DNA of 64,000 nt, from contig JAHQWL010000075.1 of assembly GCA_029856155.1 (NCBI GenBank), positions 32,001-96,000 of the forward strand, read 5' to 3'. The stretch comes from Promethearchaeia archaeon. GTDB lineage: Archaea; Asgardarchaeota; Lokiarchaeia; Sigyniarchaeales; SOKP01. This document shows positions 1 through 18,807 of the stretch, piece after piece; within the stretch, counting starts at the first letter, position 1; every line of letters begins with the position of its first letter. The position numbers and the translations under genes are program-made. The notes below the pieces were generated by a model that saw only the letters and a program-made list of their open reading frames with translations, did no database searches and was not told the origin of the DNA.

Positions 1-1
1 T

Positions 2-286: not shown

Positions 287-374
287 ACTCTTTTTTTTAA
301 ATTATCATGATAATATATCATATTTCCCAAATTTTACTTCTTTAAATAATTAGAATCAAAAATTAAAATGTATT

Positions 375-1601: not shown

Positions 1602-1646
1602 TACCAAAATCAAGTTAAATATCAATGATATCTGTAGAATATCCAA

Positions 1647-1686
1647 TAAAGAAAAGAAAAAATAGAAGAATCTTAAAAAGATTCTT
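1647..1686 (-). terminator. hairpin plus U-tract terminator for a minus-strand transcript
   Basis: Perfect 9-bp inverted repeat AAGAATCTT(1666-1674)-AAA-AAGATTCTT(1678-1686), followed on the minus strand by TTTTTTCTTTTCTTT; starts 2 nt after the micro-ORF stop. Confidence 0.5.
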
Positions 1687-1688
1687 AT

Positions 1689-1718
1689 CTAGCCTCCTCC
1701 TTCTCCAGTAGATGGCAT
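1689..1718 (-). CDS. putative micro-peptide MPSTGEGGG
   Basis: ATG...TAG in a GC-rich patch within AT-rich spacer; TTTATAAA box 22-29 nt upstream; terminator downstream; C-terminus resembles the peptide at 16964-17077. Confidence 0.4.
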   Translation of the reverse strand: MPSTGEGGG

Positions 1719-1835
1719 ACCTTTATTTCTAAATGCAATTTTATAAAGTAAACGAAAAAAAAATAATGCAAATAAAGATTATATAAAATTATAAAATATC
1801 TTAATAATAGTGTAAAAAAAACTGTATTATCTAAT

Positions 1836-4800
1836 ATGCTTGGACTTTTTAATTATAAAACTTTAGAGGAGTTATCCATAGGAAAGGGTTTGAGTCGAAT
1901 ACAAAATGTATTTAACACTTTTATTCATGAATTAGAGGATAATCTTAAGATACAACCCATTTACCCAAATATTTTAATAAAAATTATTGACAAAGAAAGT
2001 TTACCAATAGGAAAAAACATATCTATTCTTGATTTTGGGGTTAATAGAATAATTAAAAATACTAAATTAATTATAGAAGTTCCCAAAAATAAATTTTTAC
2101 CATTCATATTGTTTAGAGAAGCATGTTATTCCTTCCTTCCAAATGGTATAAGTCAACTCGTTAAAATTTGTATAAATCAAATTGTAGAAAACAATCTCAT
2201 CGGAGTATCGACTTCTAAAGAATGGAAAAAGTTTATAAGAGATTCCCTAGTAAACAGGGATTTCATTTACTCTCAATTTGATAAATTAAAAAAGTTTTTT
2301 AAAATTGAAGCAGAAGAGCCGTTTGAGAGTTCTACTCAGTTTTTTTTTAAGGAAATGAGAGAAAACATCGAATTGAGCAAAAATAATAACCTCAATAGGT
2401 TCTATGATATAATTTTTGAAAACTATGCTTATAAAACATCAAGATCTATATTTAACTCAGATATTATTAAAACACTGAGGATCCTAATTCAAATTTTCTA
2501 CGAGACTAAAACATATCTAAATTTAACAGATTATCAAACCAAATTTAAAGAGTTTAAAGAAAAAAAGAATTTAGAATTAGAGATAAGTTTGAGAAAATTT
2601 ACAGAAAATATGCAATGGATTAATAAGTGTTCTTCCATTTCGCCTTCATATGAAATCTCCTTTGATAGTATTGACCTTCATCTAATTATAGGTATCATAA
2701 AATTCAATCCCCTTTTAGAAAGAATAAAAATCAAGACTGTTATGGAACAATGGCTATTTTATCATTCTCCAAAATTATGTGAAAATAGTTTTACAACTGA
2801 ACTCTTTTTATTTTTTATTGTTCCCAGACTATATTTAAAAGATCTGTTAAATTATTTTGATAGCTTAAAAGATTCTGGATTTGTTCTTTACAATAAGTTT
2901 TATCAAGTTTCAAGTAAAACATCGCTAATAAACTTAAACTATTTTATGAACGTCTCTAACGTAATTAAGATAATAGAACCATCAAGTATTAAGTATAGGA
3001 GTAATTATGAAATTGAAACTGTCACTGAATATCCCCCTATCCCCCATCAATCCCCCTTGTCCCTATTTGATTTTACCCTTTTAGATCGTATAAAATATGT
3101 TTCAGTCACGGGTTTAACTTTTGATAAAAGAATAGAAACATTAAATGCAATAAAAGATGATATCAAAAATGAGTTACGAAAACAGAAAACATTTAATAGC
3201 CAGTTTAAGGACAATTTAAGTAAACTTAATAAATATAAACACCAATTTTTGCAGTTATTAGAAGAGAATGAGAAACAAGGATTTTTATACTTTTATTCTC
3301 AACTAAACAATATTCTAAATTACATTGATCTAATTGATGGTGTTTTAAATGAGCATTCAGAGATATTAAATATATATCAGCTCAAGACTTTCATAGATGA
3401 AAAAGCAACCTTTCAAATCATCGATGACCAATTAATTTTACAAAATGAAAATATTAATAAAATAGTATTTCATCATTTTCTTCCTCTTTATTTTCAATCT
3501 AAAAGCTCATTTAGAGAAGAAGTAGAAAAATACCAAAATTACTATGACATCTTAAATACCTGTAAAAATCTTAAAATTTTAGATCTGAGGAAAATAAAGA
3601 AAATTGTTAGTGAATCTAAGTTAGCTGATAAAATTTATGAAACAAGAGAAAAAATATACAAGGAATTATTTAAGACTGTAAGTTCATATAAAATTACAAA
3701 TGAGAAAATTGAATCTACTATCAGAACATTTTTAAATCATGATCCTCCGGTGTTGAATCCACTTCTAATAAATACAATTTTCACAAGTACATTTGCGAAA
3801 TATTATCCTGAATTAATACTAAAATATACACCTGAAGTTTATAATCAACTTCAAAAATTGAAACCATATTTTCCAAGAATTTTTATATATAAAATGATAG
3901 AGCTTAAAACAAACAAAAATTTCATTAATATTTCAATCTATTTTCTGAATATCAAAGAAAAAAAACTATTCTTATCGGTCTTATATTCTTATTTTAATGA
4001 CTATATAATTACAATTAAACGTTTTTTTTGGAGAGGTTTTGTAAGAATCCCTGAACTATTGGCAAGAGATTTTTACGATTTTAAATCTAAGCAATTCTTC
4101 TATTCAGAAGATATTTTCAGCCAACTTCAAAAATTTTCTGAAAAAATTCTTGGTGAAAAATTGGTATATCCTGATTATTCAATGATAAAAAATATAAACG
4201 AATTATTCTGGACCAGAAAGCAAAATATGGATAGTTTGGTAAATGTTGTAAAAGAAAGAATCTCACGTCAAAAAATAGACTTCAACTCAAAAGAATTAAA
4301 GGATTTATCAGATTTTACAAAAAATATCGAAACCTTTATATTAAACAGAACTAAATTTATAGATCTAAAAATCAAACAATTCTTCAATACATATATAAAA
4401 TCAATAAATTTTCTTCCAGCATTTCAAAAATTTGGCTTTTCACAGTACTATTTATATTTTCGGCCATTTTTTTATAAATCTCCGACTTTCGAAATTGATT
4501 TCAGAATTTTATTTGCAAATTCCTTCCAAAAAATTAAATATCCAGCTGTTATTGAACAAAATCCAGCAATCTATGGCAAGTATATATTTCCATTAAGAAC
4601 TCCTAATAAATCTTATTTGAACTGGCTTGTAAAATCAAAAAAGATTGTTTCTGAGTATTGTCTTTTTTATAACAAGAAATTTTATGAGATTGTTCATTTT
4701 AATCGCAATTTAACAAATGAAAATTGGAGTTATTCATCACTTAGGTTTAAAACTTACATGCAAGATGTATTATTCAATCCCTACTACGAACCAAAGATTT

Positions 4801-5462
4801 CAGGTATTAGAGAATTCGATATTTGTGAAATTTCCGAAACCGAGATCTATGGATATTATACAAAGGAATTCGAAGATTTATCTAATATTTATAATACTCA
4901 ATCTATTGATATTAAATCATTCTTAGGAACAAAACAATATTCCAAGATTAACACAATTATTGAACTCATCAAGAAGAAATTAATTTTCCCTTATATATCA
5001 CTAAAAAATTTAGATTTTCAAGATAAAGTATCAATTATTTTGCCTGATACTAAACAAGAGTTTAATGAAAAGATAATGAAGGTATTTAGTTTTTTTAATA
5101 TGTGTCGAATATATGAAATTGAGGGAGAATTTTTTATATATGGTTTTGAGGAGGAAAAAACTTTTGAAAATGGATTATTAATTGAAATCTGGTTTCCAAA
5201 ATGTGAATTAGATGAATTTTTTAATGTATTTGATTTAATATTTCAATATTTCGAAATTAAACATTATTTAATCTTGACAGACTTAATTAATGGGAAGACC
5301 TTATTAAAGTCCATTTATGGAAACTTAAATTTTTTAAAAGATTATAATCCCTTATTGAACCTAAAATGGAATGATAAAGATAAGATATGGATGAATCATA
5401 AGCTTTTTAATGAAAAGTTCGAACCAATTTACCCAGATTTGATTAAAAAGGAAAATGAATAA
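1836..5462 (+). CDS. 1208-aa hypothetical protein with repeated Lrp/AsnC-like wHTH+RAM modules; paralogue of 13023-16688
   Basis: Long ORF; Lrp-like linkers (ISPSYEISFDSIDL, LPAFQKFGFSQYYL, LIFPYISLKNLDF); colinear similarity to the second copy (YEIEGE, YLILTDL.NG, YNPL.NL.WN....WMNHKLF). Confidence 0.75.
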   Translation: MLGLFNYKTLEELSIGKGLSRIQNVFNTFIHELEDNLKIQPIYPNILIKIIDKESLPIGKNISILDFGVNRIIKNTKLIIEVPKNKFLPFILFREACYSFLPNGISQLVKICINQIVENNLIGVSTSKEWKKFIRDSLVNRDFIYSQFDKLKKFFKIEAEEPFESSTQFFFKEMRENIELSKNNNLNRFYDIIFENYAYKTSRSIFNSDIIKTLRILIQIFYETKTYLNLTDYQTKFKEFKEKKNLELEISLRKFTENMQWINKCSSISPSYEISFDSIDLHLIIGIIKFNPLLERIKIKTVMEQWLFYHSPKLCENSFTTELFLFFIVPRLYLKDLLNYFDSLKDSGFVLYNKFYQVSSKTSLINLNYFMNVSNVIKIIEPSSIKYRSNYEIETVTEYPPIPHQSPLSLFDFTLLDRIKYVSVTGLTFDKRIETLNAIKDDIKNELRKQKTFNSQFKDNLSKLNKYKHQFLQLLEENEKQGFLYFYSQLNNILNYIDLIDGVLNEHSEILNIYQLKTFIDEKATFQIIDDQLILQNENINKIVFHHFLPLYFQSKSSFREEVEKYQNYYDILNTCKNLKILDLRKIKKIVSESKLADKIYETREKIYKELFKTVSSYKITNEKIESTIRTFLNHDPPVLNPLLINTIFTSTFAKYYPELILKYTPEVYNQLQKLKPYFPRIFIYKMIELKTNKNFINISIYFLNIKEKKLFLSVLYSYFNDYIITIKRFFWRGFVRIPELLARDFYDFKSKQFFYSEDIFSQLQKFSEKILGEKLVYPDYSMIKNINELFWTRKQNMDSLVNVVKERISRQKIDFNSKELKDLSDFTKNIETFILNRTKFIDLKIKQFFNTYIKSINFLPAFQKFGFSQYYLYFRPFFYKSPTFEIDFRILFANSFQKIKYPAVIEQNPAIYGKYIFPLRTPNKSYLNWLVKSKKIVSEYCLFYNKKFYEIVHFNRNLTNENWSYSSLRFKTYMQDVLFNPYYEPKISGIREFDICEISETEIYGYYTKEFEDLSNIYNTQSIDIKSFLGTKQYSKINTIIELIKKKLIFPYISLKNLDFQDKVSIILPDTKQEFNEKIMKVFSFFNMCRIYEIEGEFFIYGFEEEKTFENGLLIEIWFPKCELDEFFNVFDLIFQYFEIKHYLILTDLINGKTLLKSIYGNLNFLKDYNPLLNLKWNDKDKIWMNHKLFNEKFEPIYPDLIKKENE

Positions 5463-5592
5463 GCTTAGAACTTTTAGATTAAACTAAAAGCTAATGTTAA
5501 TTCTTAATTAAAAAGTGTTAAATAATTATAATAAAATTTAAACGTTATTTTGGATATTTTAATAAGTATAAGACATTAAATAGGTAGAAAAA

Positions 5593-5667
5593 GGACCTAT
5601 AGCCTAGCCTGGATAGGGCGTCGGACTTCTAATCCGAAAGTCGCAGGTTCGAATCCTGCTAGGTCCG
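5593..5667 (+). tRNA. tRNA-Arg(UCU), intronless
   Basis: Acceptor GGACCTA/TAGGTCC, anticodon arm TCGGA-CTTCTAA-TCCGA, T arm GCAGG-TTCGAAT-CCTGC; CCA not encoded. Confidence 0.97.
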
Positions 5668-5670
5668 CTC

Positions 5671-6828
5671 TTAATTTGAAGCTTTAATTTTTAAGTCAGC
5701 AACAATCAATTCAGATTTGGGCGAATAATGCTTAACGATTTTAGAATTAATGATAGACTCAATTTCCCAATAATGACGAGTTATTTCTTCCTCAAGGTTC
5801 TTTAAAGATTTATCAATAGGATTTGGTTTTTCAGAGAATTGATAAAAGTGTAAAATCCCACCAGATTCTTTCATTAAATAGCAAGCTACATCAATAAATT
5901 CGATTGAGCTTTCAGGTAAATTCATGATTATCCTATTTGCTTTATTCCTCAGAAGTTGGCCTAAATGGTTTTTAGGCTCAAGAAGTTCTTTAATATCTAT
6001 ATTTTTTGGAAAAATTTCTCCCTTTAGCTTATTTAAATAAATATTTTCTTTCAGATATTCATAAGCATTGGAGTTAATATCAAACGCATAAATTTTGACA
6101 TTTTTATTTTTCGCAATTTGAATAGAGAAAGTTCCAATGCCAGCAAACATATCAACGATTATCTCGTCTTCTTGTATCCTAGTTGAAGCAATCCTTCGTC
6201 GTTCAAAGACTAATCTTGGTGAGAAGTATGTATTCTTAACATCAAGCTTAAAAATACAATCATTTTCCCTATGAATTGTCTCAGATTTTTCTTCACCGTA
6301 CAAAACATCTAATTCTCGTAAACGATATTTTCCTTTGATTTGACTCTTTTTCTCATAAACGGTTTTTACATTTTTATTTACGTTTGATATCCCCTTAGCA
6401 ACCATCTGCTTATAAACGCTGAAATCCTTATCATCAATATTAATAAATTTATCAAACTCGATTATAGCTATACTTCCAACAATATCATATGATTTTGGAA
6501 TTACTTCTGAATACCTATCCGGTATTTTACCTTCTAATGCTTCCTGAAGTGTTCTATATTTAAAATTTTCTTTGGGTATTCCTTCTTTGGAAATTAATTC
6601 AAAATTAATTTTTTTATCTACTGATGAAGTTACTCTATCGATTAGAGTTTGGTCTTTAACTATTGGAAATAGTATATTTTCATTCTCATATAAAATTTTA
6701 AATCTTTGATTAATAAGTTGGGTATTTTTTAACTTATTTTTTAAAAAATTAATGAATGCTTGTCCATCTTTCGCTTTAAATTTAATGTATAAGATCTCAG
6801 TTTGGTTATAATTTCCCATTTTTCTCAT
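5671..6828 (-). CDS. trm5: tRNA (guanine37-N1)-methyltransferase, Trm5/Met-10 family
   Basis: PKSYDIVGSIAI, YFSPRL..ERRRI, VDMFAGIGTFSI, RIIMNLP motifs. Confidence 0.9.
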   Translation of the reverse strand: MRKMGNYNQTEILYIKFKAKDGQAFINFLKNKLKNTQLINQRFKILYENENILFPIVKDQTLIDRVTSSVDKKINFELISKEGIPKENFKYRTLQEALEGKIPDRYSEVIPKSYDIVGSIAIIEFDKFINIDDKDFSVYKQMVAKGISNVNKNVKTVYEKKSQIKGKYRLRELDVLYGEEKSETIHRENDCIFKLDVKNTYFSPRLVFERRRIASTRIQEDEIIVDMFAGIGTFSIQIAKNKNVKIYAFDINSNAYEYLKENIYLNKLKGEIFPKNIDIKELLEPKNHLGQLLRNKANRIIMNLPESSIEFIDVACYLMKESGGILHFYQFSEKPNPIDKSLKNLEEEITRHYWEIESIINSKIVKHYSPKSELIVADLKIKASN

Positions 6829-7243
6829 TTATTTCAAATATGATTGAAAATTTTTTTCCAGAAATTTTTAGATTTTCGATTAGTTCACGGTTTATTTCAA
6901 TCGATGATTTAGTACAATTTATTAGAACCGTTCTATCACAAATAAAATCGCTTTTGCGAAAAACCATATCTTTTTTATCCACTAATCTTAATTCTTTATT
7001 TCCAAAACCATAAAAGCAATCTTGAAGATTTTCCAACCTTAAAATGATTTTTATTTTACTTCCATCTTTTATTTCCTTTTTTAAACAGGGATTTAAATCA
7101 CAACAAGCTTTTGAAGCATTTATTCCTATGATACAATTTCCTTTCTTTGTTAAACTCTTTTCTTTTGTAATTTCAATAGTTGTACTATGCGTACAGAGAA
7201 TATTTTCGTGTCCATAGGCAAAAATCTTTTCTAAAATCGCCAT
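6806..7243 (-). CDS. DUF371 domain protein
   Basis: GHENILCTHSTTIEITKEKSLTKKGNCIIG, MVFRKSDFICDRT signatures. Confidence 0.9.
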   Translation of the reverse strand: MAILEKIFAYGHENILCTHSTTIEITKEKSLTKKGNCIIGINASKACCDLNPCLKKEIKDGSKIKIILRLENLQDCFYGFGNKELRLVDKKDMVFRKSDFICDRTVLINCTKSSIEINRELIENLKISGKKFSIIFEINEKNGKL

Positions 7244-7248
7244 ATACT

Positions 7249-8895
7249 TTATTCATCCCTAAAGAATTGTAATAAATCGTTTAAATTAGTAAATTTAGAA
7301 TAGTTTGAATGAAATTTAGAATTTAAAAGAGGTTCTAATCCATGAATTGGATTAACAGGGTTAAATTTTTCAACTTCATTAAATTGATTTAAATAGCTCT
7401 CGGGAATTAATACTCCACATTTATGATACTTATTATAATTTTGATTAATATAAGCGCTTGACTTCTTAACTGAGTTCTTATAAAGTTCATCATCCTCTTC
7501 GGAGACCGTTATAGATTCAAATTGTCCCATCGGATATGTACTTATTAATTCAAGTGGAATTATTCCAAAATAGAAAGAATTAAACACAATATGTATGTCT
7601 TTAACAGCGATTATTGTATTATCATTTATCTCTTTAAGCCAATTTTGGATTGTTGGAGAATTTTCTCCTCTAGCATCTAATTCTGGTAATATTATTAAAA
7701 ACTTTACATCTTCTGGAACCCGATAGTTGATATTAATCCTCTTCTCATATCTGGTAATCAAAGGTCTGTAAATATCTTCAGTAGAAACAAACATTCTCCC
7801 ATGCTTCTTATACACTTTTTCATAGAGTTCAAACACAGGAGATTTTTTCTTTAAGATCCGTACTGCTTTGATTAAATTAGGGTGTGCTCTTACACGTTGA
7901 TCAACAAGTTCCCACAAATTCCCCTCTCTTATTGCTTGTCTAATTGTTTTTAGCTCAGAAAAAGAAAGATACAAGTTATGTTCTGCTAAGAGTTTAATTC
8001 GCAAATTATCTTCGAATTTCCTCAGTTCATTTGGTTTAAATTTTGTACAAATTGGGCAATGGCATGGAAATTCTTCTAAATCCTCAAGATTTTTTGTACC
8101 TGTGGATAAGGTAAAATACCTATTCTCTTTAGCATATAAGATATATGCTGCAGAATCCATTAAATCGCAACCACATGCGACAGCTAAGGAAAAAAACTGT
8201 GGTAGACCTAACCCAAACATGTGTAATGGTTTATTTGAGTTTATATTTTTTTTCACATTCAACAAAATTTGAATAGCTCTATCAAATCTGTAATCAAGAA
8301 AAGATTTTACCAATCCCCCAATCGCATAAACATCAAAATCCAGTTTATTCATTTCATTAATACATTTTGTCAAAAGATCATCATATTTACCTCCATGAAT
8401 CGGCCCAAACCATGCACAATTTTCATTGAATCGTCTTTTAACGTTATCTCTTGCTCTATCGATTGTTGCATCAACTTTTTTTTTTGCTATTTCATATGCA
8501 TCATCAGGTTGTACAGGAAGATCAAGGATCACAGGAAAATCTGATTCAATCTTTTCTTGAAATCCTTCAATTTCTTCAGCTTCAATCTTCATATCAGACT
8601 TGTTATACATATACTGTTGAAATGCTCCGCTATCGGTTGCGATAAGACCATCAAAATCAAGAAATTGGTGAATCTTTTTCTTCATGAGGCTTTCTTTTAT
8701 AGTTTCATTTTGAAAAAGGATATAAGCATTCGTAAAAACAGCTTGAGCACCAAAGCTTTTTAAATCAGAAGGTTGAATAACATTTTTAAAAGGATGTACT
8801 ACAGGAAAAAGATTAGGGGTAATCATCTGCTTATTGTTGACTTCTAATTTTCCTATTCTGCCTAAAGCATCTACATCTAGAATTTCATACTTCAT
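7249..8895 (-). CDS. tgtA: archaeosine tRNA-guanine(15) transglycosylase
   Basis: TPNLFPVV, TDSGAFQ, HMFGLG, DSAAY, Zn site CHCPIC...HNL. Confidence 0.93.
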   Translation of the reverse strand: MKYEILDVDALGRIGKLEVNNKQMITPNLFPVVHPFKNVIQPSDLKSFGAQAVFTNAYILFQNETIKESLMKKKIHQFLDFDGLIATDSGAFQQYMYNKSDMKIEAEEIEGFQEKIESDFPVILDLPVQPDDAYEIAKKKVDATIDRARDNVKRRFNENCAWFGPIHGGKYDDLLTKCINEMNKLDFDVYAIGGLVKSFLDYRFDRAIQILLNVKKNINSNKPLHMFGLGLPQFFSLAVACGCDLMDSAAYILYAKENRYFTLSTGTKNLEDLEEFPCHCPICTKFKPNELRKFEDNLRIKLLAEHNLYLSFSELKTIRQAIREGNLWELVDQRVRAHPNLIKAVRILKKKSPVFELYEKVYKKHGRMFVSTEDIYRPLITRYEKRININYRVPEDVKFLIILPELDARGENSPTIQNWLKEINDNTIIAVKDIHIVFNSFYFGIIPLELISTYPMGQFESITVSEEDDELYKNSVKKSSAYINQNYNKYHKCGVLIPESYLNQFNEVEKFNPVNPIHGLEPLLNSKFHSNYSKFTNLNDLLQFFRDE

Positions 8896-8922
8896 TTGGT
8901 TTCCTTTGAGAATTTACGTTTA

Positions 8923-9516
8923 TTAATCAAAAAATTCATTTAAACGATCCTCTTTAAATAACTTTTCAAGCCAATCAACTTTTCCAATCTTAAAATTTTC
9001 TCCGTTATTATTTTCAAATATAATTTCAACGATAATTTGCGCTACAGCTTCAATATTAGTATTTGTCGTGTCGATTTCATATATGGGTGCTTTTATCCGC
9101 TTTTGAATAAAATAATTGGCACAATTACCTAGAATTTCTGCTTGAATGTTTTCATTAATTTTTTCTCTATCGAAATTTTTTATTTCTAATCTTCTGAATA
9201 ATTCATCCGGATCACATCTTAAAATAAATACATAATCAATAAATCTTTCGGGAATAATATCTGAGAAATGGCTTTCTATTATCAGGTATGGTGGATTCTC
9301 TTGTTTAATATCTTCAATCTTATCTAAAATATAAGGTAGAAATATTTCAAAATCTACGATATATGTTTTTCTTTCTTCATCATATTCAAATGAAAATTCA
9401 TCCGAAATTGCTAATTCATTTAAAGACATTATTTTAGCTTTAATTAAATTAGAAATTTCTTTTGCTACCGAAGTTTTTCCGCAGCCAGGTGTTCCGGAGA
9501 TAACGATATTTTTCAT
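8923..9516 (-). CDS. adenylate kinase, AK6/Fap7 family
   Basis: ISGTPGCGKT, IIESH, ILRCDP..L..RL, ENIQAEI. Confidence 0.9.
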   Translation of the reverse strand: MKNIVISGTPGCGKTSVAKEISNLIKAKIMSLNELAISDEFSFEYDEERKTYIVDFEIFLPYILDKIEDIKQENPPYLIIESHFSDIIPERFIDYVFILRCDPDELFRRLEIKNFDREKINENIQAEILGNCANYFIQKRIKAPIYEIDTTNTNIEAVAQIIVEIIFENNNGENFKIGKVDWLEKLFKEDRLNEFFD

Positions 9517-9874
9517 TTCTAAGTATATAATAGAGATCGATAATTAAAAAAGTGAATGAACATAATTGAAGTTAATTCATAGTAAGAGTTTTCAGGAAGA
9601 ATTTTTCTTGATAATATCAAAGAATCCTCTAAGATGTAAAAATACATAATAAAAGAGTGATTTAAATTATGATGATAGTATCATTCAATACAATCCATTG
9701 GGTGCTTAATAACATAATTACAATACAAACTTGGTTTCTTATTAAAGAATATTATTACTCATGAGGAGAAAGTACTATTTGATGAATCGATGCGATTACA
9801 GTTAAGTAAGCGCAGAATGGACAAAAATAAAGATCTTGAATTTGAAATTCTAACTTACCTTTTTTTACTATTTA

Positions 9875-10324
9875 CTAATGTTCAAGGAAATCTCTGAAAC
9901 TATGATATACACAGACAATATATTCACATTTGGGGCATTCGTACCAATCTTTATATCTCTCATTTGATTTTATTAGTAATGGGATTTGACAAGAGGGACA
10001 TTTTATAGGTTGTTCTTTATGATTTATTATATGCTTTTTATAATCCTCTTCTAGCTCACATTCAAGATCTTCTTTTAATATATATGAATCTGTTTTTGCT
10101 ATAAAATCTAATATTTCTTGGTTCGGATACCATTCATTATGATGTCTGTATTTTCTAAATCTTTTATGTAAATCATATTCTCCTCTACTATTGCCTTCAA
10201 TAATCTTTAGTATTCTCAATTTGTCTGCATTGAAGCTCTTTAAAATACTACATCTATCTTTTGGATTAGTAGAAAAACCAATCTTTATCAATCCTGTTTT
10301 TTTAGCTTGAATAAAATACAACAT
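9875..10324 (-). CDS. GIY-YIG (T5orf172/MUG113-like) nuclease domain with C-terminal Zn ribbon
   Basis: LYFIQ....IKIGFSTNPKDR...E..LHKRF...NEWY; CPSC...CPKC. Confidence 0.8.
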   Translation of the reverse strand: MLYFIQAKKTGLIKIGFSTNPKDRCSILKSFNADKLRILKIIEGNSRGEYDLHKRFRKYRHHNEWYPNQEILDFIAKTDSYILKEDLECELEEDYKKHIINHKEQPIKCPSCQIPLLIKSNERYKDWYECPKCEYIVCVYHSFRDFLEH

Positions 10325-10674
10325 TATATAATTCCTCTTAAGTGATAATGCTTTTCTTAATCATCGATTAATATGAGTTAAGAAAGAATTTTTGGTCATT
10401 CACCTTCTCTAATTAATTATAAAATAAAGATTTTCTTTAATTTAAATGAAAGAGTCCCGAAATTTTATGATTAATAAATAAATCGATGCAATAAAAAGCA
10501 ACTACTTCGCCAAATAAATAAAAATCTTTAACGTAGACTAAGCATACTTAAATTTAGCAAGTTATTCCATCCATATTTTTAATCGGAGTGACTAATTTAA
10601 CTCATCTCATTGAAAGATTGAAATTTAGTTTTTAATTAAAATTTATTGTTTAAAATAAGGAAATAATAAAATAA

Positions 10675-10869
10675 TTGAGAAAAAACTGCAAGAACCTCAT
10701 GAATTATATATTATTTAAGAATAAATATCCTATGTTTGATATTGAATATAAAATTAGACAGAGCTATTATAATGCTCTCGAAAATGCAAATCTAAAGGAA
10801 GATGATATGATTTTTATTGGTTGGTTTTGTAAAAGATATATTAAAGCAAATGAACATTACTTGAAATAA
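10675..10869 (+). pseudogene. C-terminal remnant of a Fic-domain protein
   Basis: LMNYILFKNKYPMFDI...RQSYYNALE resembles the segment after the Fic HPFxDGNGR motif; the motif itself is absent and T-A-R lies just upstream out of frame. Confidence 0.6.
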
Positions 10870-10938
10870 AAGTTTTATACCTTTTTGAGTGCCCGCTGTA
10901 AAAAAAATAATCGGAGTATCACATGCCTAACTAATAAG

Positions 10939-11042
10939 TGGGAAAGGGGGGCTTCGAACCCCCGACCTCACGGTTATCAGCCGTGCGCTATACCAGGCTA
11001 AGCCACTGAAGAGATACTTCTAACACAAGAATCCACTCTCCC
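10939..11042 (-). tRNA. tRNA-Ile(GAU) with ~30-nt insertion/intron at position 7/8 (11006-11035); alternative 5' end at 11055
   Basis: D arm, CACGG-CTGATAA-CCGTG, GGGGG-TTCGAAG-CCCCC, 3' CTTTCCCA; the 5' acceptor strand (GGGAGAG 11042-11036 or GGGAAAG 11055-11049) is separated from the D arm by an insert. Confidence 0.85.
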
Positions 11043-11199
11043 AAGCTGCTTTCCCTTTAAAGATTAATTATAAAAGTTTTAATTCTTTATTATTAAAAGT
11101 TGTAATGGTTATTATCAATGTACAATTTGTTGAATAATTTATATAATATATAGCTAAAAAATTTTTTGACAATTTGAAAAAGATAAATTTCCCTTAAAT

Positions 11200-12648
11200 T
11201 TACAAAAAGTCGTCTAAAGAACCCTTGATTCGATACGATTCACCATCTCCTAAAGGATCAAACCTAACATAGGGATCATATTTCATTTGAACATCATAAA
11301 GGCCAAATACATCTTTAACCTGTTCATTGAATTGTAGAACAATTTCCTGTATTACTCGTTTTTGATTTTTCAATAACATTTTTCGATTAAAACCGTCCTT
11401 TTCTTTCAAGCGTATTAGAATTATCTTTTTTCTATAAGAAACCTCATTTTTAATAGAGTCTCTCGCGTTTATTGAGGCAAAATCCTCCATACTATCGCAA
11501 AAAGGATTTTTTTTAATATTTATCTCATCATGATAAAAACCATCATATTCTCCAGCTATCGCAAATTTATAATTGATTCCGTCATTCCCTATAACATAAA
11601 CATTAGGACAAAAATGATCATATCTTAATTGGCCAACAAAAACAGGAATAGGATATTTAACTCCATTTATTCGTATTGTTCGGATAATGACCTTCTCTCT
11701 ATCAATTCCACAAGCCTGTTCTAACCTTACTTGAACTTTGAATTCTTTTTTAAAAAACTGCTCTAAATAAGTCCTCATCATTCTTTCACAGATCAACTCA
11801 TTACAATATGGGCACCAATTATAATCATATATTATTTTTCTCACTTGAATCGAGAATTCATGTCCTACTCCGCATGATATTTTTATATACCTATCAGTAG
11901 GATATTCAGTCATTAATTCATAAACAGTTCTCGAAGTCAGAATACGTGCTTTTCCATGACTTCGATACTGAATGAAGTCTTTAATATTCTCATATTCAAT
12001 TCTTTTTCGTATAGCACACGTTTTGCCCCATACTTCATCGTAAATCGCGCGTGATTCACCAGGATTATAGCATTTCACTTGAACAAGATATTCTATTACC
12101 CATGGTTTAAATGTATTTTTACTGATTATCCCATGCAAATCACCTTTTAGTAAATTATTCCTTGTTGGAATCAAAGATATGCTCTTAGGATATAATCTAA
12201 TATATTTTTCAATTATTTCATAAAACCTAATTTTTTCTTTTTTTTTAGCTGAATTTTCTGGCCAAAATAATTTTATAACATCTTCTACTGCTTCTTTCCC
12301 ATATAATATTTCTAACCAAGTTGAAATGTAAGCTCTAAGTGTTGGTCTTGAAATTCCTAAGCGATCTGAAATCGTTCGTAATGATCCAAATCTGTCATCA
12401 TATATAATGTCTTTAAAACAATTTATTGGGTCATTTCCTAATAAATCTATTACATAATTTCTAATTTTTTGTTTATCTATTTCACTGAGATTTGAACAAC
12501 TAGGTTTTAAACCTAAATTTATGTTGTTAGTACGAAAAAAATTCGAATTATTCGGGTCGTAATAATTAAAATGGCGACCTTTGGAGTTATTTAATCCACA
12601 ATAATTTTCACCATTAATATGATTCCTTTTGTTATTTTCTTTTTTCAT
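11200..12648 (-). CDS. HTH + Zn ribbon + Vsr/DUF559-like PD-(D/E)xK endonuclease
   Basis: SLRTISDRLGISRPTL (HTH); CGVGHEF...WCPYC; LRYDHF...GEYDGFYH...DSIKNE...IILIRL. Confidence 0.7.
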   Translation of the reverse strand: MKKENNKRNHINGENYCGLNNSKGRHFNYYDPNNSNFFRTNNINLGLKPSCSNLSEIDKQKIRNYVIDLLGNDPINCFKDIIYDDRFGSLRTISDRLGISRPTLRAYISTWLEILYGKEAVEDVIKLFWPENSAKKKEKIRFYEIIEKYIRLYPKSISLIPTRNNLLKGDLHGIISKNTFKPWVIEYLVQVKCYNPGESRAIYDEVWGKTCAIRKRIEYENIKDFIQYRSHGKARILTSRTVYELMTEYPTDRYIKISCGVGHEFSIQVRKIIYDYNWCPYCNELICERMMRTYLEQFFKKEFKVQVRLEQACGIDREKVIIRTIRINGVKYPIPVFVGQLRYDHFCPNVYVIGNDGINYKFAIAGEYDGFYHDEINIKKNPFCDSMEDFASINARDSIKNEVSYRKKIILIRLKEKDGFNRKMLLKNQKRVIQEIVLQFNEQVKDVFGLYDVQMKYDPYVRFDPLGDGESYRIKGSLDDFL

Positions 12649-13022
12649 TTAATCCCATACATCTTATAATTCTTCTGTTACTCTATTTTCAATAAAAATT
12701 TTATCAAACAATGAAATAAAAATCTATTTTATGTTTTAGAGTTATTATTTTATACATTTTTTATTAGAAATTACCACTTTAAAATCCGTGATATTTATCT
12801 TTTTCTTTCCTCTTTAGATATATAATCATTAGAGTTTATAAATTTATATATTTTCTATTCAAGCGATTTTATCTTTATAAATAAACTAAAAATCTTTAAT
12901 TTAATTTTGCCTTTATAAATCTTTCGTAAAACTAATTTATGTTAGCATACCCATAAATACTATAAAAAAATCAAATTAATGAAACCAAAAAAGTAAATAA
13001 ACTAAGGTATTATGAAAAATAT

Positions 13023-16000
13023 CTAGGATTCTAAAATTCGTTCATTTTCTACTTTTTCTTTGAAAATAAGTTCGGGATACAAAAATTCAAAAGTTTTACT
13101 AAACAATTTATGGTTCATCCACATTTCATTTTTTGTGTTCCATATTAAATTTTTTAAGGGATTATATTTTTCAAGAAAATTTTTATTTCCGTAGACCGAT
13201 TTGATAATAGAGTCACCATTAACCAAATCAGTTAATATCAAATATTTTTCAATCCTTAAGTACTGAAAAATATATTCAAAAATTCTTAAAAATTCAGCAA
13301 TTTCGCAATCTGGAAGATATAATTTGATCATTAGTCCACTATATATCTTTTTCTTCTTACTAAAGCCGTGAATATAATACTCTCCTTCAATTTCGTAAAT
13401 AAAACCTAAATTGAAATACTGAAATATGTATTTTAGTATATCAATTGTATCTTTTTTTAGATTTAGCAAAATAATATGGATAATTTCATTCAATCCCAAA
13501 TTTTTTGGAGTAATAATGGGAAAGATAATTTTCTTCTTGATTAAAGTTTGAATCTCATCGAAGATAGATTGGTTAATAATATTATAATTTTTCTTAATAT
13601 CAACAGAATGCCAATTATATATATGCAATAAAGCTTTAAAATAGGGAGAATTAGGTTTATAATAATCTGAAATTATTAAATCACCAGTATCAAAATGTTT
13701 CACGTCTGAAGTTTGAACTCTATAATTTGGATTGAAAAGAATATTTTGTATATAAGTATTAAAATTATTAGAATCTAAGTACCATCCATTTGAGCTTAAA
13801 TTATAGTTGAAATGGAAAATTTGAGAAACAGATTTAATAGTAAATAGGCAATATTCTCTTATTTTGTTTTTACTTCTCAACCAGTTAAGGTATGAAGTAT
13901 TGGGTTTATTGTAAGGAAATAGATATTTAATAAATATGGAATTAGAACTATCAATTGATGCCATATGCTTAATTTTTTGAAAAGTATTTGTAAATAATAT
14001 TTTGAAATCTACATCTTCTACATCAAAAGGAGTAATATATAAAAAGTATTGTCCTAATCCAAAATTTTGGAAAGCAGGAAGTAGTTTTATTGATTTTATA
14101 TATTGTCTAAAGAAATTTTCTTTTTTTATTATTTGAAATTCTCCTTTGTTCATAAAATGTTTTTCAAGATTTAAGTGAAAATGTATTAATTTTTGAATAT
14201 CTATTGGATTAAAACTGATACATTCAGATCTAATTCTTTTGTTGATTTTCTTAATAAGATTTGCCAGATTTTCTTTTATAGACCAATGTTTAATCGTACT
14301 AACTGATTTTTCTTTAAATTGGTTTAACTCTTCGCCACAAATATTTTTAGTGTAAAGAAAAAATTGCTCAAATAGATCTTTGGTGAAGAAAAACTCTTTC
14401 TTATTGAAATCATAAAAATCTTTTCTTGAAAAAGTATGTAAAAAACCGTCCCATGAATATCGTTTAAAAGATATAATATTTTCTTTAAAAATCTTAGATA
14501 TTACTGAAATTAATGTTATCTTTTCGTTATTATTCAAATATGGAATAAAAAGTTGTAAAAAAATAAATTCTTGGTTACTGAATAAATCTATTGTTTCATA
14601 GAAATAACTTTTAGGAAAATAATTTTTTATTTTATTTATTGTAGCTCTTACTTCAGGGGAATTTTTTAGTATTATTTGAGGAAAATAGCTTGCGACTGAA
14701 TTTGTCCATATAGTAGCAATTAAGTAGGGTTTAATTATCTTAGGATCTTTATTGATAAATTCATCTATCTTGAGATTAATTGTCTTATTTGATACATTAT
14801 AAGTTTTATTTTTTTTTTTTAATTCTCTTAATCGTGCTTTTTTTAATTTAGTAATCTTATTTGATAAGTTTGGATCATTGATTATTTTTTTAATTGATTT
14901 AATACTAAAAATTTTTAAATTAGAACATAACTTTAAAAATTCGTAAAAAATTCGGAGTTTTTCAACATCTTTAGCATATTTGGCTCTAGAATTCAAATAA
15001 TTCAGGAAGAGATTTTTAAAAGTAAAGGAATTTGAATCTATATGGTCAAATATATTACTTTCTTCAATTGATTGTATTATATTCTCTTTTTCAACAAATT
15101 CTTTAAATTGAATAAAATTATTCATTCTGTTTGTATCTTTCGATTCTTTTTCAATTATTTTGAAATAATTTACCCATTTTTTTAATTCATCTTTAATATA
15201 GAAAAATCCGAAATTTTGATTTCTTTCTAAAAAAATTACGAAATCCTTTCGGAGTTCAGGAGAATCAATTAGTATTTTCAAACTATTCTCTAATTCTTCA
15301 ATTAAACTATTTTCACCTATGAAAAAATTAGAATGATCAGATTTTATTATGTTTGAAATTTCCCTTTTTCTTGAAAAGTTTATTCCAACAAAAGAAAAAA
15401 ATCTTATTCTCTCTAAAATTAAAAAATCCAGAAGTGTTAGATTAGGTTTATTAAAGTCTTTATTATAATTTTGTATGAATTCGATTTCAAAGTCTTTTGA
15501 GTAGTTTTTATTATTAAGTTCTATTATCTGCCCATTTTTATAAGATTCTCTAAAATAATTTAAATTCAACGAAAAAACATACTTCTTTGCTAAAGAACAA
15601 TGTTTCTTAATTATGTATCCATATTTCTCCATTTCTTTCAACATATAAATCAAATCTTTAATATAAATTCTTGGAATAACAAAATATGCCGATAATTCTA
15701 CTGCAAAATTAGTTATCGAAAGTTTTGGCATAATTAGAAATGGCATTTGGTTAGTAATCTTGTCAATTTTAGCTTTTTCTAGTAGAGGATTGAATTGCAA
15801 ATGGCATGTAATAATAGCTATATTAATTGCTTTCCAATCAAAATAGTATGATGGGGTTATATAGCTATATTTATTAATCCATCGAAGGTTTTTTCTAAAA
15901 CTCCGTGAACTCAAATCAGTTTGGATGATTCCCTGTTTTTTAAAATTATTAAAGTAATTATAAAATCCTTCCAAAGTATCACAGTTTTTTATTTTGTAGA

Positions 16001-16688
16001 AAATTTTAGTTAAAATTCTAAGAGTTTCTGTAATCTCATTACTCTGTAAATTCTTTGAAGATTTGAACATAAAATCTTCATACATTTTATTAAAGTAAAA
16101 TTGTAGATTCTCATCGAAATCTAGGTTTGAATTTTGCCTGATGTATTCAAAAAAGAATTGTTTTGGACTTTCGGAATCTTTTGTTTCTTTTAATTCAAGG
16201 AATTTGTCAAAACGGAATTTATCTGATTGATTCGATAGAAAATTGTAATTCAAAAATCTTTCTCTTATGAAAAGTCCCCATTCTGTAACCGAGGTGAATT
16301 CTTTTAAATCAATTTCTACAAATTGGTTAATAGCAAAATCAATGAGATTTTTTTCTTTTAGATTATTCGGGATAAAAGTAAGATAAGCACTTTGAAGTAA
16401 TAGAAAGGGGAAGAACTTTCTATAATTTTTAAAAAGTTTAATATGATATATATCATCTCTTATAGATCTATTCACTCCGTAACTATGTAATCTTTTATCT
16501 GAATCTCTGTTCTCATTTATTTCATCAACAACATGTATTTTTACTTTTTTGTTGATTACATCTAAATTTAAATAAGCTTTTAACTCATTCATTAGATAAA
16601 TGAAAATCTGATTTATCTTAATAGGATCATCCATATTAGATAATTTTTTCAACTTATCTAAATTAGGAGAGTTAACCAAATTCATCAA
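13023..16688 (-). CDS. 1221-aa hypothetical protein with repeated Lrp/AsnC-like modules; paralogue of 1836-5462
   Basis: Full-length colinear similarity to 1836-5462 (FNPLLE, LDF..L.RI, RDFYDF/KDFYDF, LPAFQ.FG..QY, SYLNWL, WMNHKLF). Confidence 0.75.
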   Translation of the reverse strand: MMNLVNSPNLDKLKKLSNMDDPIKINQIFIYLMNELKAYLNLDVINKKVKIHVVDEINENRDSDKRLHSYGVNRSIRDDIYHIKLFKNYRKFFPFLLLQSAYLTFIPNNLKEKNLIDFAINQFVEIDLKEFTSVTEWGLFIRERFLNYNFLSNQSDKFRFDKFLELKETKDSESPKQFFFEYIRQNSNLDFDENLQFYFNKMYEDFMFKSSKNLQSNEITETLRILTKIFYKIKNCDTLEGFYNYFNNFKKQGIIQTDLSSRSFRKNLRWINKYSYITPSYYFDWKAINIAIITCHLQFNPLLEKAKIDKITNQMPFLIMPKLSITNFAVELSAYFVIPRIYIKDLIYMLKEMEKYGYIIKKHCSLAKKYVFSLNLNYFRESYKNGQIIELNNKNYSKDFEIEFIQNYNKDFNKPNLTLLDFLILERIRFFSFVGINFSRKREISNIIKSDHSNFFIGENSLIEELENSLKILIDSPELRKDFVIFLERNQNFGFFYIKDELKKWVNYFKIIEKESKDTNRMNNFIQFKEFVEKENIIQSIEESNIFDHIDSNSFTFKNLFLNYLNSRAKYAKDVEKLRIFYEFLKLCSNLKIFSIKSIKKIINDPNLSNKITKLKKARLRELKKKNKTYNVSNKTINLKIDEFINKDPKIIKPYLIATIWTNSVASYFPQIILKNSPEVRATINKIKNYFPKSYFYETIDLFSNQEFIFLQLFIPYLNNNEKITLISVISKIFKENIISFKRYSWDGFLHTFSRKDFYDFNKKEFFFTKDLFEQFFLYTKNICGEELNQFKEKSVSTIKHWSIKENLANLIKKINKRIRSECISFNPIDIQKLIHFHLNLEKHFMNKGEFQIIKKENFFRQYIKSIKLLPAFQNFGLGQYFLYITPFDVEDVDFKILFTNTFQKIKHMASIDSSNSIFIKYLFPYNKPNTSYLNWLRSKNKIREYCLFTIKSVSQIFHFNYNLSSNGWYLDSNNFNTYIQNILFNPNYRVQTSDVKHFDTGDLIISDYYKPNSPYFKALLHIYNWHSVDIKKNYNIINQSIFDEIQTLIKKKIIFPIITPKNLGLNEIIHIILLNLKKDTIDILKYIFQYFNLGFIYEIEGEYYIHGFSKKKKIYSGLMIKLYLPDCEIAEFLRIFEYIFQYLRIEKYLILTDLVNGDSIIKSVYGNKNFLEKYNPLKNLIWNTKNEMWMNHKLFSKTFEFLYPELIFKEKVENERILES

Positions 16689-16963
16689 TTTAATATATAA
16701 TTTTTGTCTTGAATCTAATATGCTGCAATTTACTTTTTAAAATTTTTCAAAGGAACTCCTTTTGTATCAAATATAATATTCCTTTATAAAGAAAAAATTG
16801 AAATAAAAATAATTCTACATAAGGATTTTATAAATATTTTTGATTCACTATAAGTGCAATTTAACCTAATTTTTATCGAAAATTAGAAAATTCTTTCTGT
16901 TTAAATAGAAGAATATAGAAGAAATGACATCAATTCATTTCATTTAATAAAAAGGTAATTAAT

Positions 16964-17077
16964 TTGAAATTATTTAAAGTATATAGAGTTCTTTTATTTG
17001 TATTAATCGGCATTGCTTCCTTTTTGCCTATGATTAGCATTGTATTAGGTTGGAAAGGAGATGGTGGAGGACCATAA
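16964..17077 (+). CDS. 37-aa putative secreted peptide precursor MKLFKVYRVLLFVLIGIASFLPMISIVLGWKGDGGGP
   Basis: AAAGGT SD 7 nt before TTG; basic n-region, hydrophobic h-region, V-L-G cleavage-like site, Gly-rich tail; T-tract about 40 nt downstream; not in ORF track. Confidence 0.65.
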   Translation: MKLFKVYRVLLFVLIGIASFLPMISIVLGWKGDGGGP

Positions 17078-17359
17078 TACAAAAAGCCCATTAATCAAAT
17101 AAAGAATATTTCAAATTTTTTTTACATTTATTTCTCTGATACCTGGATTTTTTATATTAAATTTATGAAATTGAAGCAATTTTTATTAAATTCTGGACTA
17201 ATTTAAAATAGATTTAGATATTTAGATTTAGAATTAACACTATTTAATGGTTGTTAGGAATAAATGTAATAAATAGTATTTAAAAAATTTTTTGACCAAA
17301 AAAATAATAAAATATGCTTATTTTTAATTAATATTATACAGTAGATGTGTTGAGATAAA

Positions 17360-17944: not shown

Positions 17945-17986
17945 CTTTTGTAGTTTTATTTTCTCTTTTTAAAAATTTAAAAGAAA

Positions 17987-18784: not shown

Positions 18785-18807
18785 ATTACTTCACTTTTAA
18801 TTAACTT

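Follow-up and report, generated by a model that had tools for sequence, protein, structure and literature searches.

Divergent micro-peptide genes linked to a family of giant proteins in a genus of Promethearchaeota: a candidate ribosomal-peptide cassette

The window analysed here is a stretch of 64,000 nucleotides (nt) from a Promethearchaeia archaeon (assembly GCA_029856155.1, contig JAHQWL010000075.1, positions 32,001 to 96,000 of the forward strand). It contains two genes coding for proteins of about 1200 residues, here called giant proteins, and, upstream of each of them and on the opposite strand, a very small open reading frame (ORF). The original prediction, made from the letters of the window alone, had proposed that each pair is either a peptide with its sensor-regulator or a precursor with its modifier, similar to those of peptides which are ribosomally synthesised and then modified post-translationally (RiPPs). 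In the following, relatives are indicated by handles for genomes (G) and loci (L).

The two giant genes, at 1836-5462 on the plus strand (locus A) and 13023-16688 on the minus strand (locus B), are paralogues sharing 36% identity across their full length of about 1210 residues; a third paralogue is found on a different contig of the same 4.1-Mb assembly. Micro-ORF A runs on the minus strand from an ATG at 1718 to a TAG at 1689, and its nine codons read M-P-S-T-G-E-G-G-G. Micro-ORF B runs on the plus strand from a TTG at 16964 to a TAA at 17077 and codes for 37 amino acids (aa), with K-G-D-G-G-G-P at the C-terminus. Both are divergent from the neighbouring giant gene, and both belong to conserved families. 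The features of the two loci are the following.

375-1601, plus strand: major facilitator superfamily (MFS) transporter (Pfam MFS_1, E 7e-8), a candidate peptide exporter, convergent with micro-ORF A
1647-1664, minus strand: T-rich run 3' of the hairpin, putative terminator of the mini-gene, in a layout common to the short mini-genes of relatives
1666-1686, minus strand: perfect 9-bp inverted repeat, AAGAATCTT and AAGATTCTT separated by a 3-nt loop, 3 nt past the stop codon
1689-1718, minus strand: micro-ORF A, assigned to the M-P-x-x-G-E family by genome-wide pattern, nhmmer and synteny
1740-1747, minus strand: TATA-like box TTTATAAA, 22 nt ahead of the ATG of micro-ORF A
1836-5462, plus strand: giant protein A, 1208 aa, its architecture taken from the model of paralogue B
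13023-16688, minus strand: giant protein B, 1221 aa, paralogue of A, with an AlphaFold2 model
16900-16907, plus strand: TATA-like box TTTAAATA upstream of micro-ORF B, kept at paralogous and orthologous 37-aa genes
16951-16956, plus strand: Shine-Dalgarno (SD)-like AAAGGT, 7 nt ahead of the TTG, kept in the copies of L002
16964-17077, plus strand: micro-ORF B, a 37-aa precursor, identified by paralogues, orthologues and the ratio of non-synonymous to synonymous differences (pN/pS)
17116-17123, plus strand: run of eight T, archaeal-type terminator candidate for micro-ORF B, in a 3' region kept in L002, L038 and L040

The position of micro-ORF A is orthologous within the synteny of MFS, giant and TYW2 genes. 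The TATA-like box lies only 22 nt from the ATG, so that the transcript is probably leaderless, and the same spacing recurs in the leaderless units of L023, L026, L029 and L044. The hairpin folds as RNA with -8.1 kcal/mol (z = -3.9); hairpins of relatives occupy a homologous position, with different stem sequences. Micro-ORF B has a signal-peptide-like anatomy: the n-region contains K/K/R, the hydrophobic core comprises 22 residues, and V-L-G precedes an 8-residue tail, W-K-G-D-G-G-G-P; its copy in L040 has an ATG start with an SD of its own, and folding of the region 3' of micro-ORF B revealed no stable hairpin. The original prediction had placed both micro-ORFs, and had described an SD and signal-peptide anatomy for one of them and a TATA box with a terminator for the other; all these elements are present in the sequence.

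Mini-gene families at the giant loci

Micro-ORF A is one of at least 20 mini-genes located divergently upstream of orthologous giant genes across the genus. The recurrent unit spans about 110 nt on the divergent strand and is composed of a TATA-like box, an SD or a leaderless start, an ORF, a hairpin and a T-run. Where an SD is used, it is a strong GGAGGT, 7-9 nt ahead of the ATG. The ORF has 8-12 codons, exactly nine in 14 of the 21 aligned units, the hairpin begins 3-9 nt past the stop and the T-run comes next. Promoter, SD, ORF, hairpin and T-run are repeated in this layout in about 25 units, and tandem copies each carry their own promoter. Hairpins with z < -2 were found in 18 of 29 units, their position being kept and their stem sequences differing between clades. 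The peptides follow the consensus M-P-x-x-G-E-x-x-[P/G/S/L], to which micro-ORF A conforms exactly; examples are MPHAGETLP, MPFQGETQP, MPYSGEIGG and MPHGGEVCP. The C-terminal residue is P, G, S, L or A, and N in one of about 20 peptides.

The specificity of the unit was evaluated by pattern and profile searches. ATG-CCN-N6-GGN-GAR, with a stop within 14 codons, matches twice in the genome of the window (8.2 Mb, both strands), at locus A and inside a 569-aa gene. Across 54 genomes of the genus the 9-codon pattern gave 21 matches, against 5 in the reversed control; about 15 of them show the full unit anatomy, all but two beside a giant gene (one 3.7 kb away). A nhmmer profile built on eight units detected further units solely upstream of giant genes, and its single match in the genome of the window, at 1653-1718, is locus A, with a weak score. 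When giant loci with at least 300 nt of upstream DNA were inspected, 26 of 34 showed a clear peptide mini-gene, four a candidate and four none. The proposed association between a giant gene and a micro-peptide gene divergent from it is real and conserved, and the linkage is kept in genomic surroundings that are unrelated to each other.

Micro-ORF B belongs to a second, longer class. A six-frame search of the genome with the 37-aa peptide revealed three copies, each divergent from and upstream of a giant paralogue, two of them in tandem beside the third paralogue. Orthologues were found in L038, L040, L041, L042 (two copies) and P0110-P0113, and a gene of this type lies upstream of every B-type orthologue examined; public homologues were collected by using a 41-aa relative as query. 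Members of this class have a near-invariant signal-like leader with small residues at -3 and -1, and a hypervariable part. The tail, 8 to 13 residues long and subject to in-frame insertions, always ends in [S/R]-G-G-G-P-stop or G-G-G-G-stop.

A further form of precursor is found in one relative. Genome G005 contains a 46-aa ORF with three in-frame 36-nt repeats, each coding for P-H-G-G-D-G-C-P, a core which matches the free-standing 9-mers of sister species. The tail of the long class (e.g. W-K-G-D-G-G-G-P) resembles the 10-mers M-F-R-G-D-G-G-G-V-P and M-F-H-G-D-G-D-L-S-P of L013; at the sister locus, L012, their counterpart forms the C-terminal part of a longer ORF, of 36 aa, the N-terminus of which is hydrophobic. 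Short and long peptides are, as far as these similarities indicate, probably related. When the giant proteins are arranged in a tree, the peptide types fall into separate clades.

Conservation of the units may in principle act on the peptide or on the nucleic acid, and the original prediction had named conservation of the DNA without codon-level constraint among the conditions that would refute it. In 13 distinct 9-codon ORFs, the codons of G5 and E6 never change at their first two positions but do so at the third, CCC, CCA and CCT are all used for Pro9, and the ORF length is constant while positions 3, 4 and 7-9 change freely. For the long class, pN/pS ranges from 0.27 to 0.70 in 14 of 15 pairs and is 1.0 for the closest pair. 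In 21 aligned units the hairpins do not lie in register, and RNAalifold consequently gave no consensus structure; the units were then folded singly; no shared RNA structure beyond the terminator hairpin was found. An Rfam scan of positions 1-20000 returned tRNAs only, with no family on the mini-genes. Codon periodicity, low pN/pS, in-frame indels and repeats, SD spacing and the lack of a shared RNA fold together argue that the constraint acts on the peptide, i.e. at the codon level.

Two other elements of the original prediction have to be revised. The motif G-[DE]-GGG, taken to be shared by both peptides, is not the common denominator: the short class shares M-P-x-x-G-E and the long class [S/D]GGGP, and G-[DE]-GGG is a local variant of a wider theme, rich in Gly, with one acidic residue and often a C-terminal Pro. 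The GC-rich patch noticed upstream of the giant genes is present, but in about 10 loci of relatives it corresponds to the SD of the mini-gene and not to Gly codons; the assumption that all G-rich patches are Gly codons was thus rejected.

Two candidate functions of the peptides were also considered. An amino-terminal copper- and nickel-binding (ATCUN)-like metal site, with His at position 3, was dropped, position 2 being Pro and His3 not being conserved. A Pup- or ubiquitin-like tag, suggested by the C-terminal GG, is mentioned only in passing, since peptides terminating in GG are limited to part of a single clade and a ThiF-family gene was found in one genome.

Some units and upstream regions deviate from the common layout. 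At L045 (G028:C30:16350-28350) a unit at 6002-6031 (minus strand) has a strong SD and codes for a peptide identical to that of the copy beside the giant gene of G028; it lies upstream of a hypF carbamoyltransferase gene and is divergent from a PI-PLC-like gene. At L014, L017 and L019 (about 1190-1330, gene orientation) the divergent micro-ORFs, of 6-12 aa, begin with M-S-G-[D/E] and are followed by about 100 nt of near-invariant non-coding DNA, up to a gene for a PD-(D/E)XK-like protein of 247 aa; this may be a different leader or an RNA element. At L010 (1227-1290) and L011 (1238-1300), both on the minus strand, the usual hairpin is replaced by two perfect 12-nt palindromes, AAATTCGAATTT, about 25-30 nt apart, which look more like protein-binding sites than terminators.

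The giant protein family

Of 36 genomes sampled within the genus, 31 contain the giant gene, whereas it was detected in none of 24 genomes outside it. Public protein sets contain 107 close homologues; a profile starting at residue 100 and extending to the C-terminus retrieved 292 clusters (50% identity). Homologues and clusters are all annotated as 'hypothetical'. The best 150 of the 292 clusters are composed of members of the same family or fragments of them, with no remote relatives among the matches listed, and nearly all homologues with a source name are labelled Promethearchaeota. P0044, a database member of the family, bears the label of transposase, owing to a match with the OrfB zinc ribbon. 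Extra copies with in-frame stops, or C-terminal fragments, are found in G022, G023, G025, G026, G004, G030, G001 and G010, which suggests frequent duplication and decay of the family.

Sequence comparisons gave little information on the nature of the protein. It matches no Pfam/NCBIfam family at E <= 0.01 / 1, and is not recognized by the HTH_AsnC and AsnC_trans_reg models; no match to PDB sequences was obtained either by phmmer or by a profile of 41 members of the family. A language-model search gave a lead only, with a score of 0.81, to a multi-HTH_AsnC cluster. When segments of the alignment were compared by hhalign, no internal repeat exceeded 13% probability; the repeats described below are visible in the predicted structure only.

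The AlphaFold2 model of giant protein B (residues 1-1200, 55-row alignment) has a mean predicted local distance difference test (pLDDT) score of 83.8 and a predicted template modelling score (pTM) of 0.82. It consists of an N-domain (18-211) and four modules, each made of a winged helix followed by a beta-alpha-beta-beta-alpha-beta domain similar to RAM domains (281-375, 652-743, 864-958 and 1055-1157), with a 190-residue helical hairpin at 443-631. In the model, RAM1-RAM2 and RAM3-RAM4 are packed as pseudo-dimers. Residues 828-1200 superimpose on NirDL (4ch7), a tandem Lrp-like siroheme decarboxylase, with Z 11.6 and a root-mean-square deviation of 5.5 over 272 aligned residues; residues 211-381 match the Lrp/AsnC regulator NMB0573 (2p6t) with Z 5.5 over 149 of 157 residues, and 211-282 match winged-helix domains. 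The model thus has the winged helix-RAM fold of the Lrp/AsnC type, and the 'Lrp-repeat' character assigned to these proteins at the outset is retained at the level of the predicted fold (Z 11.6 and 5.5) and lost at the level of sequence families. The suggested affinity to the RRNPP receptors is not maintained, as the fold includes no TPR domain.

The N-domain, folded alone, reaches a pLDDT of 82.9. Among its top 50 fold matches about 38 are zincins (M1, M4, M36, M3, minigluzincins, SprT and TAF2), with 160-175 aligned residues and Z between 5.3 and 8.1, in the grey zone of the fold tool; matches to atlas structures (M78, SprT-like) have TM below 0.5. HEXXH is absent from the relevant helix (87-103), where the consensus is L-L-R-E-A-Y and giant protein B has L-L-Q-S-A-Y, and no His is conserved; the N-domain would therefore be a zincin-like fold lacking the metal site.

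Giant proteins contain no hydrophobic segment and are soluble and net basic (+44 for B, +23 for A); this charge and the palindromes of the shared intergenic region offer no more than indirect hints of a possible DNA binding. Apart from NirDL, the Foldseek matches of the whole model were mostly to AcrB-type pumps, with TM below 0.1; these were read as chance matches of ferredoxin-like subdomains and discarded. Prediction of a complex between residues 1-960 of giant protein B and the 37-aa peptide gave a median of 0.40, with a best control of 0.00; the pLDDT of the partner is at least 37, and at least 41% of the contacts agree between runs. In the calibration of the tool this mark was reached by 58 of 80 solved complexes and by 2 of 110 mismatched pairs, and results that pass with 0.60 or less are in the majority incorrect, except where there was prior reason to expect the pairing; the prediction lends weak support to the pairing.

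Cassettes and their interpretation

The neighbourhood of locus A is conserved, with an MFS gene, one or more peptide genes, the giant gene, a tRNA-Arg(TCT) gene and a Trm5/TYW2-DUF371-ArcTGT operon. The MFS gene has orthologues (57-76% identity) flanking the A-type locus in many genomes, relatives at 26-35% identity flanking giant genes of other clades, and no other homologue in its own genome. MFS genes are common at loci with leaderless peptides; in the same flank range, 1.5-2.5 kb (up to about 8 kb, at L057), none was found at loci with signal-bearing peptides.

Genes coding for putative tailoring enzymes were found in relatives. A B12-binding radical S-adenosylmethionine (SAM) enzyme is encoded beside the peptide or the giant gene in at least eight genomes (G002, G014, G015, G016, G017, G020, G064 and L043). 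In G014, G015, G016 and G020 this class-B enzyme gene directly follows the peptide genes, with the MFS gene on its other side; besides this, G020 carries genes for a ThiF-family protein and for a protein of 155 aa, and the peptide gene is present there a third time. The radical SAM gene is also found next to giant genes belonging to other clades and contexts: in G064 a signal-type peptide gene separates the two, and G017 and L043 are additional examples. In G005, at L058 (G005:C22:21700-31700, positions 409-3803), the slot downstream of the Cys-bearing precursor with three cores is taken by a gene for a 589-aa YcaO protein, with a convergent MFS gene behind it, in what looks, from the gene content, like a textbook azoline or thioamide RiPP cluster in an Asgard genome. 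Neither the radical SAM nor the YcaO proteins of relatives reached a curated equivalog. In the tree of giant proteins, the loci with radical SAM genes are dispersed among three deep clades; this distribution suggests that the association is old, and the enzyme ancestral rather than added on. In the window's genome the cassette has two reduced forms, MFS, peptide and giant gene at locus A, and signal-bearing peptide and giant gene at locus B. The enzyme block of G020 is bracketed by direct copies of the peptide unit, and recombination between such copies could have produced the stripped form of the window. Of the two partnerships first proposed, the RiPP-like one receives independent support in relatives, which have radical SAM or YcaO genes together with MFS genes; the modifiers found there are separate enzymes, absent from this genome, and nothing points to the giant protein as modifier.

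Some further observations concern the surroundings of these genes. The operon downstream of giant gene A, on the minus strand, encodes a Trm5/TYW2-type methyltransferase (5671-6828), a DUF371 protein (6806-7243) and an archaeosine-type tRNA-guanine transglycosylase (7249-8895); with the tRNA-Arg(TCT) gene it forms a block, 5593-8895, which is the right-hand anchor of the A-type locus across the genus. At L044 (G002:C1:382600-394600) a leaderless unit with a hairpin, at 6000-6029 (plus strand) and coding for M-P-R-G-G-E-I-G-S, lies in the interval that separates the TYW2 operon from the MFS gene, and a gene for a B12-binding radical SAM enzyme begins 320 nt downstream of it. Directly downstream of giant gene B, a 482-aa ORF (11200-12648, minus strand) has no Pfam/NCBIfam match, and nothing corresponding to it was found in the flanks of the giant loci with which it was compared. 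A segment at 10945-11007 (minus strand) scores 44.7 bits with the Rfam tRNA model, covering model positions 6-65 only, and is not called by ARAGORN; it may be an intron-containing or split tRNA without an adjacent 5' acceptor strand.

Taken together, these data make it reasonably probable that the micro-ORFs are real, translated mini-genes, and that they belong to a RiPP-like or peptide-export cassette of one Promethearchaeota genus, in which the giant protein is the constant partner. Each mini-gene would be a complete unit, with its own promoter, a leaderless start or a strong SD, and a terminator, from which a short ribosomal peptide would be made in excess. The product would be a Gly-rich acidic peptide of about 8-14 residues, obtained by three routes. 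At locus A the ORF would code for the peptide itself, a 9-mer of the M-P-x-x-G-E type; at locus B the peptide would be the tail of a longer precursor (36-41 aa), the leader of which is Sec-signal-like; and in one relative three repeated cores would come from one 46-aa precursor. A full cassette would comprise the giant gene and, divergently, the peptide gene or genes, an interchangeable tailoring enzyme and a convergent MFS gene. The tailoring slot would be taken by a class-B B12 radical SAM enzyme or by YcaO, once with ThiF, and modification would be optional; the product would leave the cell through Sec in the long class and through the MFS transporter in the short one. We infer that the peptides are translated in vivo, exported and, where enzymes are present, modified, and that the giant protein binds the peptide as a ligand and regulates the shared divergent promoter region. 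The role of regulator is ranked first because the protein is the constant member, shares the control region, and is predicted to combine Lrp-type units with a dead zincin similar to a peptide groove; those of modification scaffold or chaperone, or of immunity, are other possible roles.

Several points weigh against this interpretation. A 9-residue precursor, devoid of a leader that could act as recognition element, is atypical for RiPPs, microcin C being the exception. The genome of the window encodes no tailoring enzyme at either locus and no radical SAM orthologue, so that the label 'RiPP' rests on relatives. Peptide gene and giant gene may also be found apart: G002, a 100% complete genome, keeps the unit and the radical SAM gene with no detectable giant gene, G028 has on contig C30 a bona fide unit with no giant gene nearby, and four giant loci lack a recognizable peptide gene. 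Most loci are orthologous within one genus, hence the counts are not independent, and the Lrp-like and zincin-like assignments, derived from models, hold at fold level only.

An alternative, favoured by the lack of a tailoring enzyme in the window's own genome, is a pure signalling pair of the RRNPP or Rgg/SHP kind, which we regard as rather unlikely. An unmodified pheromone would be exported by Sec at locus B or by the MFS transporter at locus A and taken up again, the cytoplasmic giant protein would sense it and control the divergent promoters, and the tailoring enzymes of relatives would be late add-ons. The head-to-head arrangement with a shared control region of 100-500 bp fits this scheme, as do the conserved leader, hypervariable tail and small -3/-1 residues of the long class, the correspondence between peptide type and giant-protein clade, which recalls pherotypes, and a soluble, basic protein built of winged helices and ligand-binding RAM units, for which the complex prediction (0.40 against 0.00 for the best control) adds weak support. 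The distribution of the radical SAM genes over three deep clades, on the other hand, suggests an ancestral enzyme and not an add-on, and a YcaO gene is found beside a Cys-bearing multi-core precursor; G002 has retained peptide and radical SAM without the giant protein, the receptor fold lacks TPR, and no Opp-type importer was seen nearby.

The very small size of the ORFs, too short to leave the ribosome tunnel, together with the hairpin 3-9 nt past the stop in most units, raises the question of a cis-acting leader peptide or attenuator, comparable to the mccA terminator, tnaC and the MAGDIS upstream ORF. Ribosomes pausing at the end of the ORF, which in many units is Pro-stop, would mask the hairpin and tune read-through into the radical SAM, YcaO or MFS gene, and an enzyme gene does follow on the same strand in G002, G014, G015, G016, G020, G005 and G064. 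In the window and in L024, L027, L032 and L033, however, promoter, ORF and hairpin are intact with nothing next on the strand and the MFS gene convergent. Moreover, tandem copies are provided with a promoter each, variability is highest in the final three codons, the place expected for a stalling motif, and neither the signal-like leader of the long class nor the three-core precursor makes sense as an attenuator. This explanation is therefore considered decidedly improbable.

It is very improbable that the units are non-coding, acting as a small RNA or as a DNA operator or terminator module in the promoter region of the giant gene, with the ORFs incidental. Conservation of promoter and hairpin equals or exceeds that of the ORF, the DNA 3' of the 37-aa gene is strongly conserved, and the palindromes of the shared intergenic region (7-5-7, or 12-nt perfect) could bind a dimeric winged-helix protein; nevertheless, strong SDs correctly spaced from the ATG, nine codons kept in 14 units despite sequence change, periodicity at G5, E6 and P9, pN/pS below 1 (14 of 15 pairs) with in-frame indels in the long class, and the lack of an Rfam family and of consensus RNA structure beyond the terminator hairpin all contradict it. 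That locus A is a decayed, functionless remnant of a longer membrane-peptide gene like that of locus B is hardly credible: its frame is open upstream to about 1778 (29 codons from stop to stop, hydrophobic at the start), it has no SD and a weak nhmmer score, and its G-G-G tail differs from the commoner T-x-P, but no start codon is available in the extended frame, every element of the unit from TATA box and ATG to stop, perfect hairpin and T-run is preserved, and orthologous loci of the same clade have intact leaderless genes of 8-9 codons with identical TATA-to-ATG spacing and the M-P-x-x-G-E layout.

Under the reading of a ribosomal-peptide cassette, the results have some general implications. 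Genes of nine codons are invisible to gene callers, and this family is recognizable here from conservation alone, by its promoter, ribosome-binding site, constant ORF length and terminator. Its link to an unannotated family of 1200-residue proteins (about 290 clusters) offers a first functional handle on a part of the Asgard 'dark matter'. The family also hints at peptides of ribosomal origin, as products or as signals, in Promethearchaeota, a group for which hardly anything is known of secondary metabolism or communication. Being short, the peptides can easily be synthesised, which makes direct testing feasible. If the giant protein were a receptor, it would represent a new sensor architecture. 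We propose more tentatively, as a possible but doubtful extension, that it is a new class of intracellular peptide receptor and transcription regulator which, with its cognate, clade-specific peptide of 8-14 residues, exported by Sec or the MFS transporter and optionally modified by a radical SAM or YcaO enzyme, constitutes an Asgard cell-cell communication system; this would be, to our knowledge, the first peptide-based cell-cell communication in the lineage closest to eukaryotes.

Comparison with known systems

A literature search found no description of the giant family or of the mini-genes, and a survey of archaeal RiPPs mentions Asgard in passing only (PMC12144867). Outside prokaryotes, the polycistronic micropeptide gene pri/tarsal-less of Drosophila, coding for 11-aa peptides (PMC10635573), offers a formal parallel, with tandem ORFs of about 10 codons, near-identical peptides and a short conserved core. 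The genes described here are instead prokaryotic, have one transcription unit per copy, and show no homology to it.

Within the giant protein, the predicted architecture is comparable to Lrp/AsnC regulators and to NirDL/AhbAB, since each of the four modules has a winged helix followed by a RAM domain, and the modules are paired as Lrp dimers. It differs from Lrp/AsnC proteins in the lack of any sequence match and in the union of four units within one chain, together with the 190-residue helical hairpin and the zincin-like N-domain. The comparison with NirDL also implies that a Lrp-like fold need not bind DNA.

With RRNPP and Rgg/SHP systems the loci share a peptide gene adjacent to and divergent from the gene of a large, cytoplasmic candidate receptor or regulator, the coexistence of precursors with a Sec leader and of leaderless ones, and a peptide type which varies with the clade of the partner. 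Differences are the composition of the giant protein, which by fold matches has winged helices, RAM repeats and a zincin-like head, and in which neither Pfam nor the fold shows a TPR, its size, about three times that of RRNPP receptors, the tailoring enzymes of relatives, the absence of an oligopeptide permease among the genes seen, and the archaeal host.

The microcin C operon consists of mccA, a gene of seven codons, followed by the genes for MccB (ThiF/E1-like) and MccC (MFS). Similarly, the mini-genes have fewer than 10 codons and precede a terminator hairpin, through which transcripts of the precursor would be produced in excess, with an MFS exporter candidate nearby and, in one relative (G020), a ThiF-family gene. 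The C-terminal Asn that defines microcin C is absent here, with one of about 20 peptides ending in N, ThiF is confined to G020, there is no MccD, MccE or MccF, and the host is an archaeon.

By analogy, the logic of the whole cassette would be that of a RiPP or peptide-export gene cluster, such as those of microcin B17, where the Gly-rich McbA is combined with YcaO, and of streptide, where StrA is combined with a radical SAM enzyme. As in these clusters, a short precursor gene, with its own terminator hairpin and under coding constraint, lies ahead of an enzyme gene, and in relatives a class-B radical SAM or YcaO gene (once with ThiF) follows directly downstream and then an MFS gene. The long class joins a leader to a hypervariable core, one relative has a multi-core precursor, and the Gly-rich cores contain Ser or Cys. 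Unlike in RiPP clusters, most precursors are leaderless and have 8-10 residues, leader and core being distinct in the 36-46-aa forms, and the genome of the window contains no tailoring enzyme. We know of no RiPP class with a partner of 1200 aa that combines a pseudo-zincin with Lrp-like repeats. What emerges looks like a ribosomal-peptide cassette not described before in archaea, in which the partner protein is without precedent and the precursor genes are of exceptionally small size.

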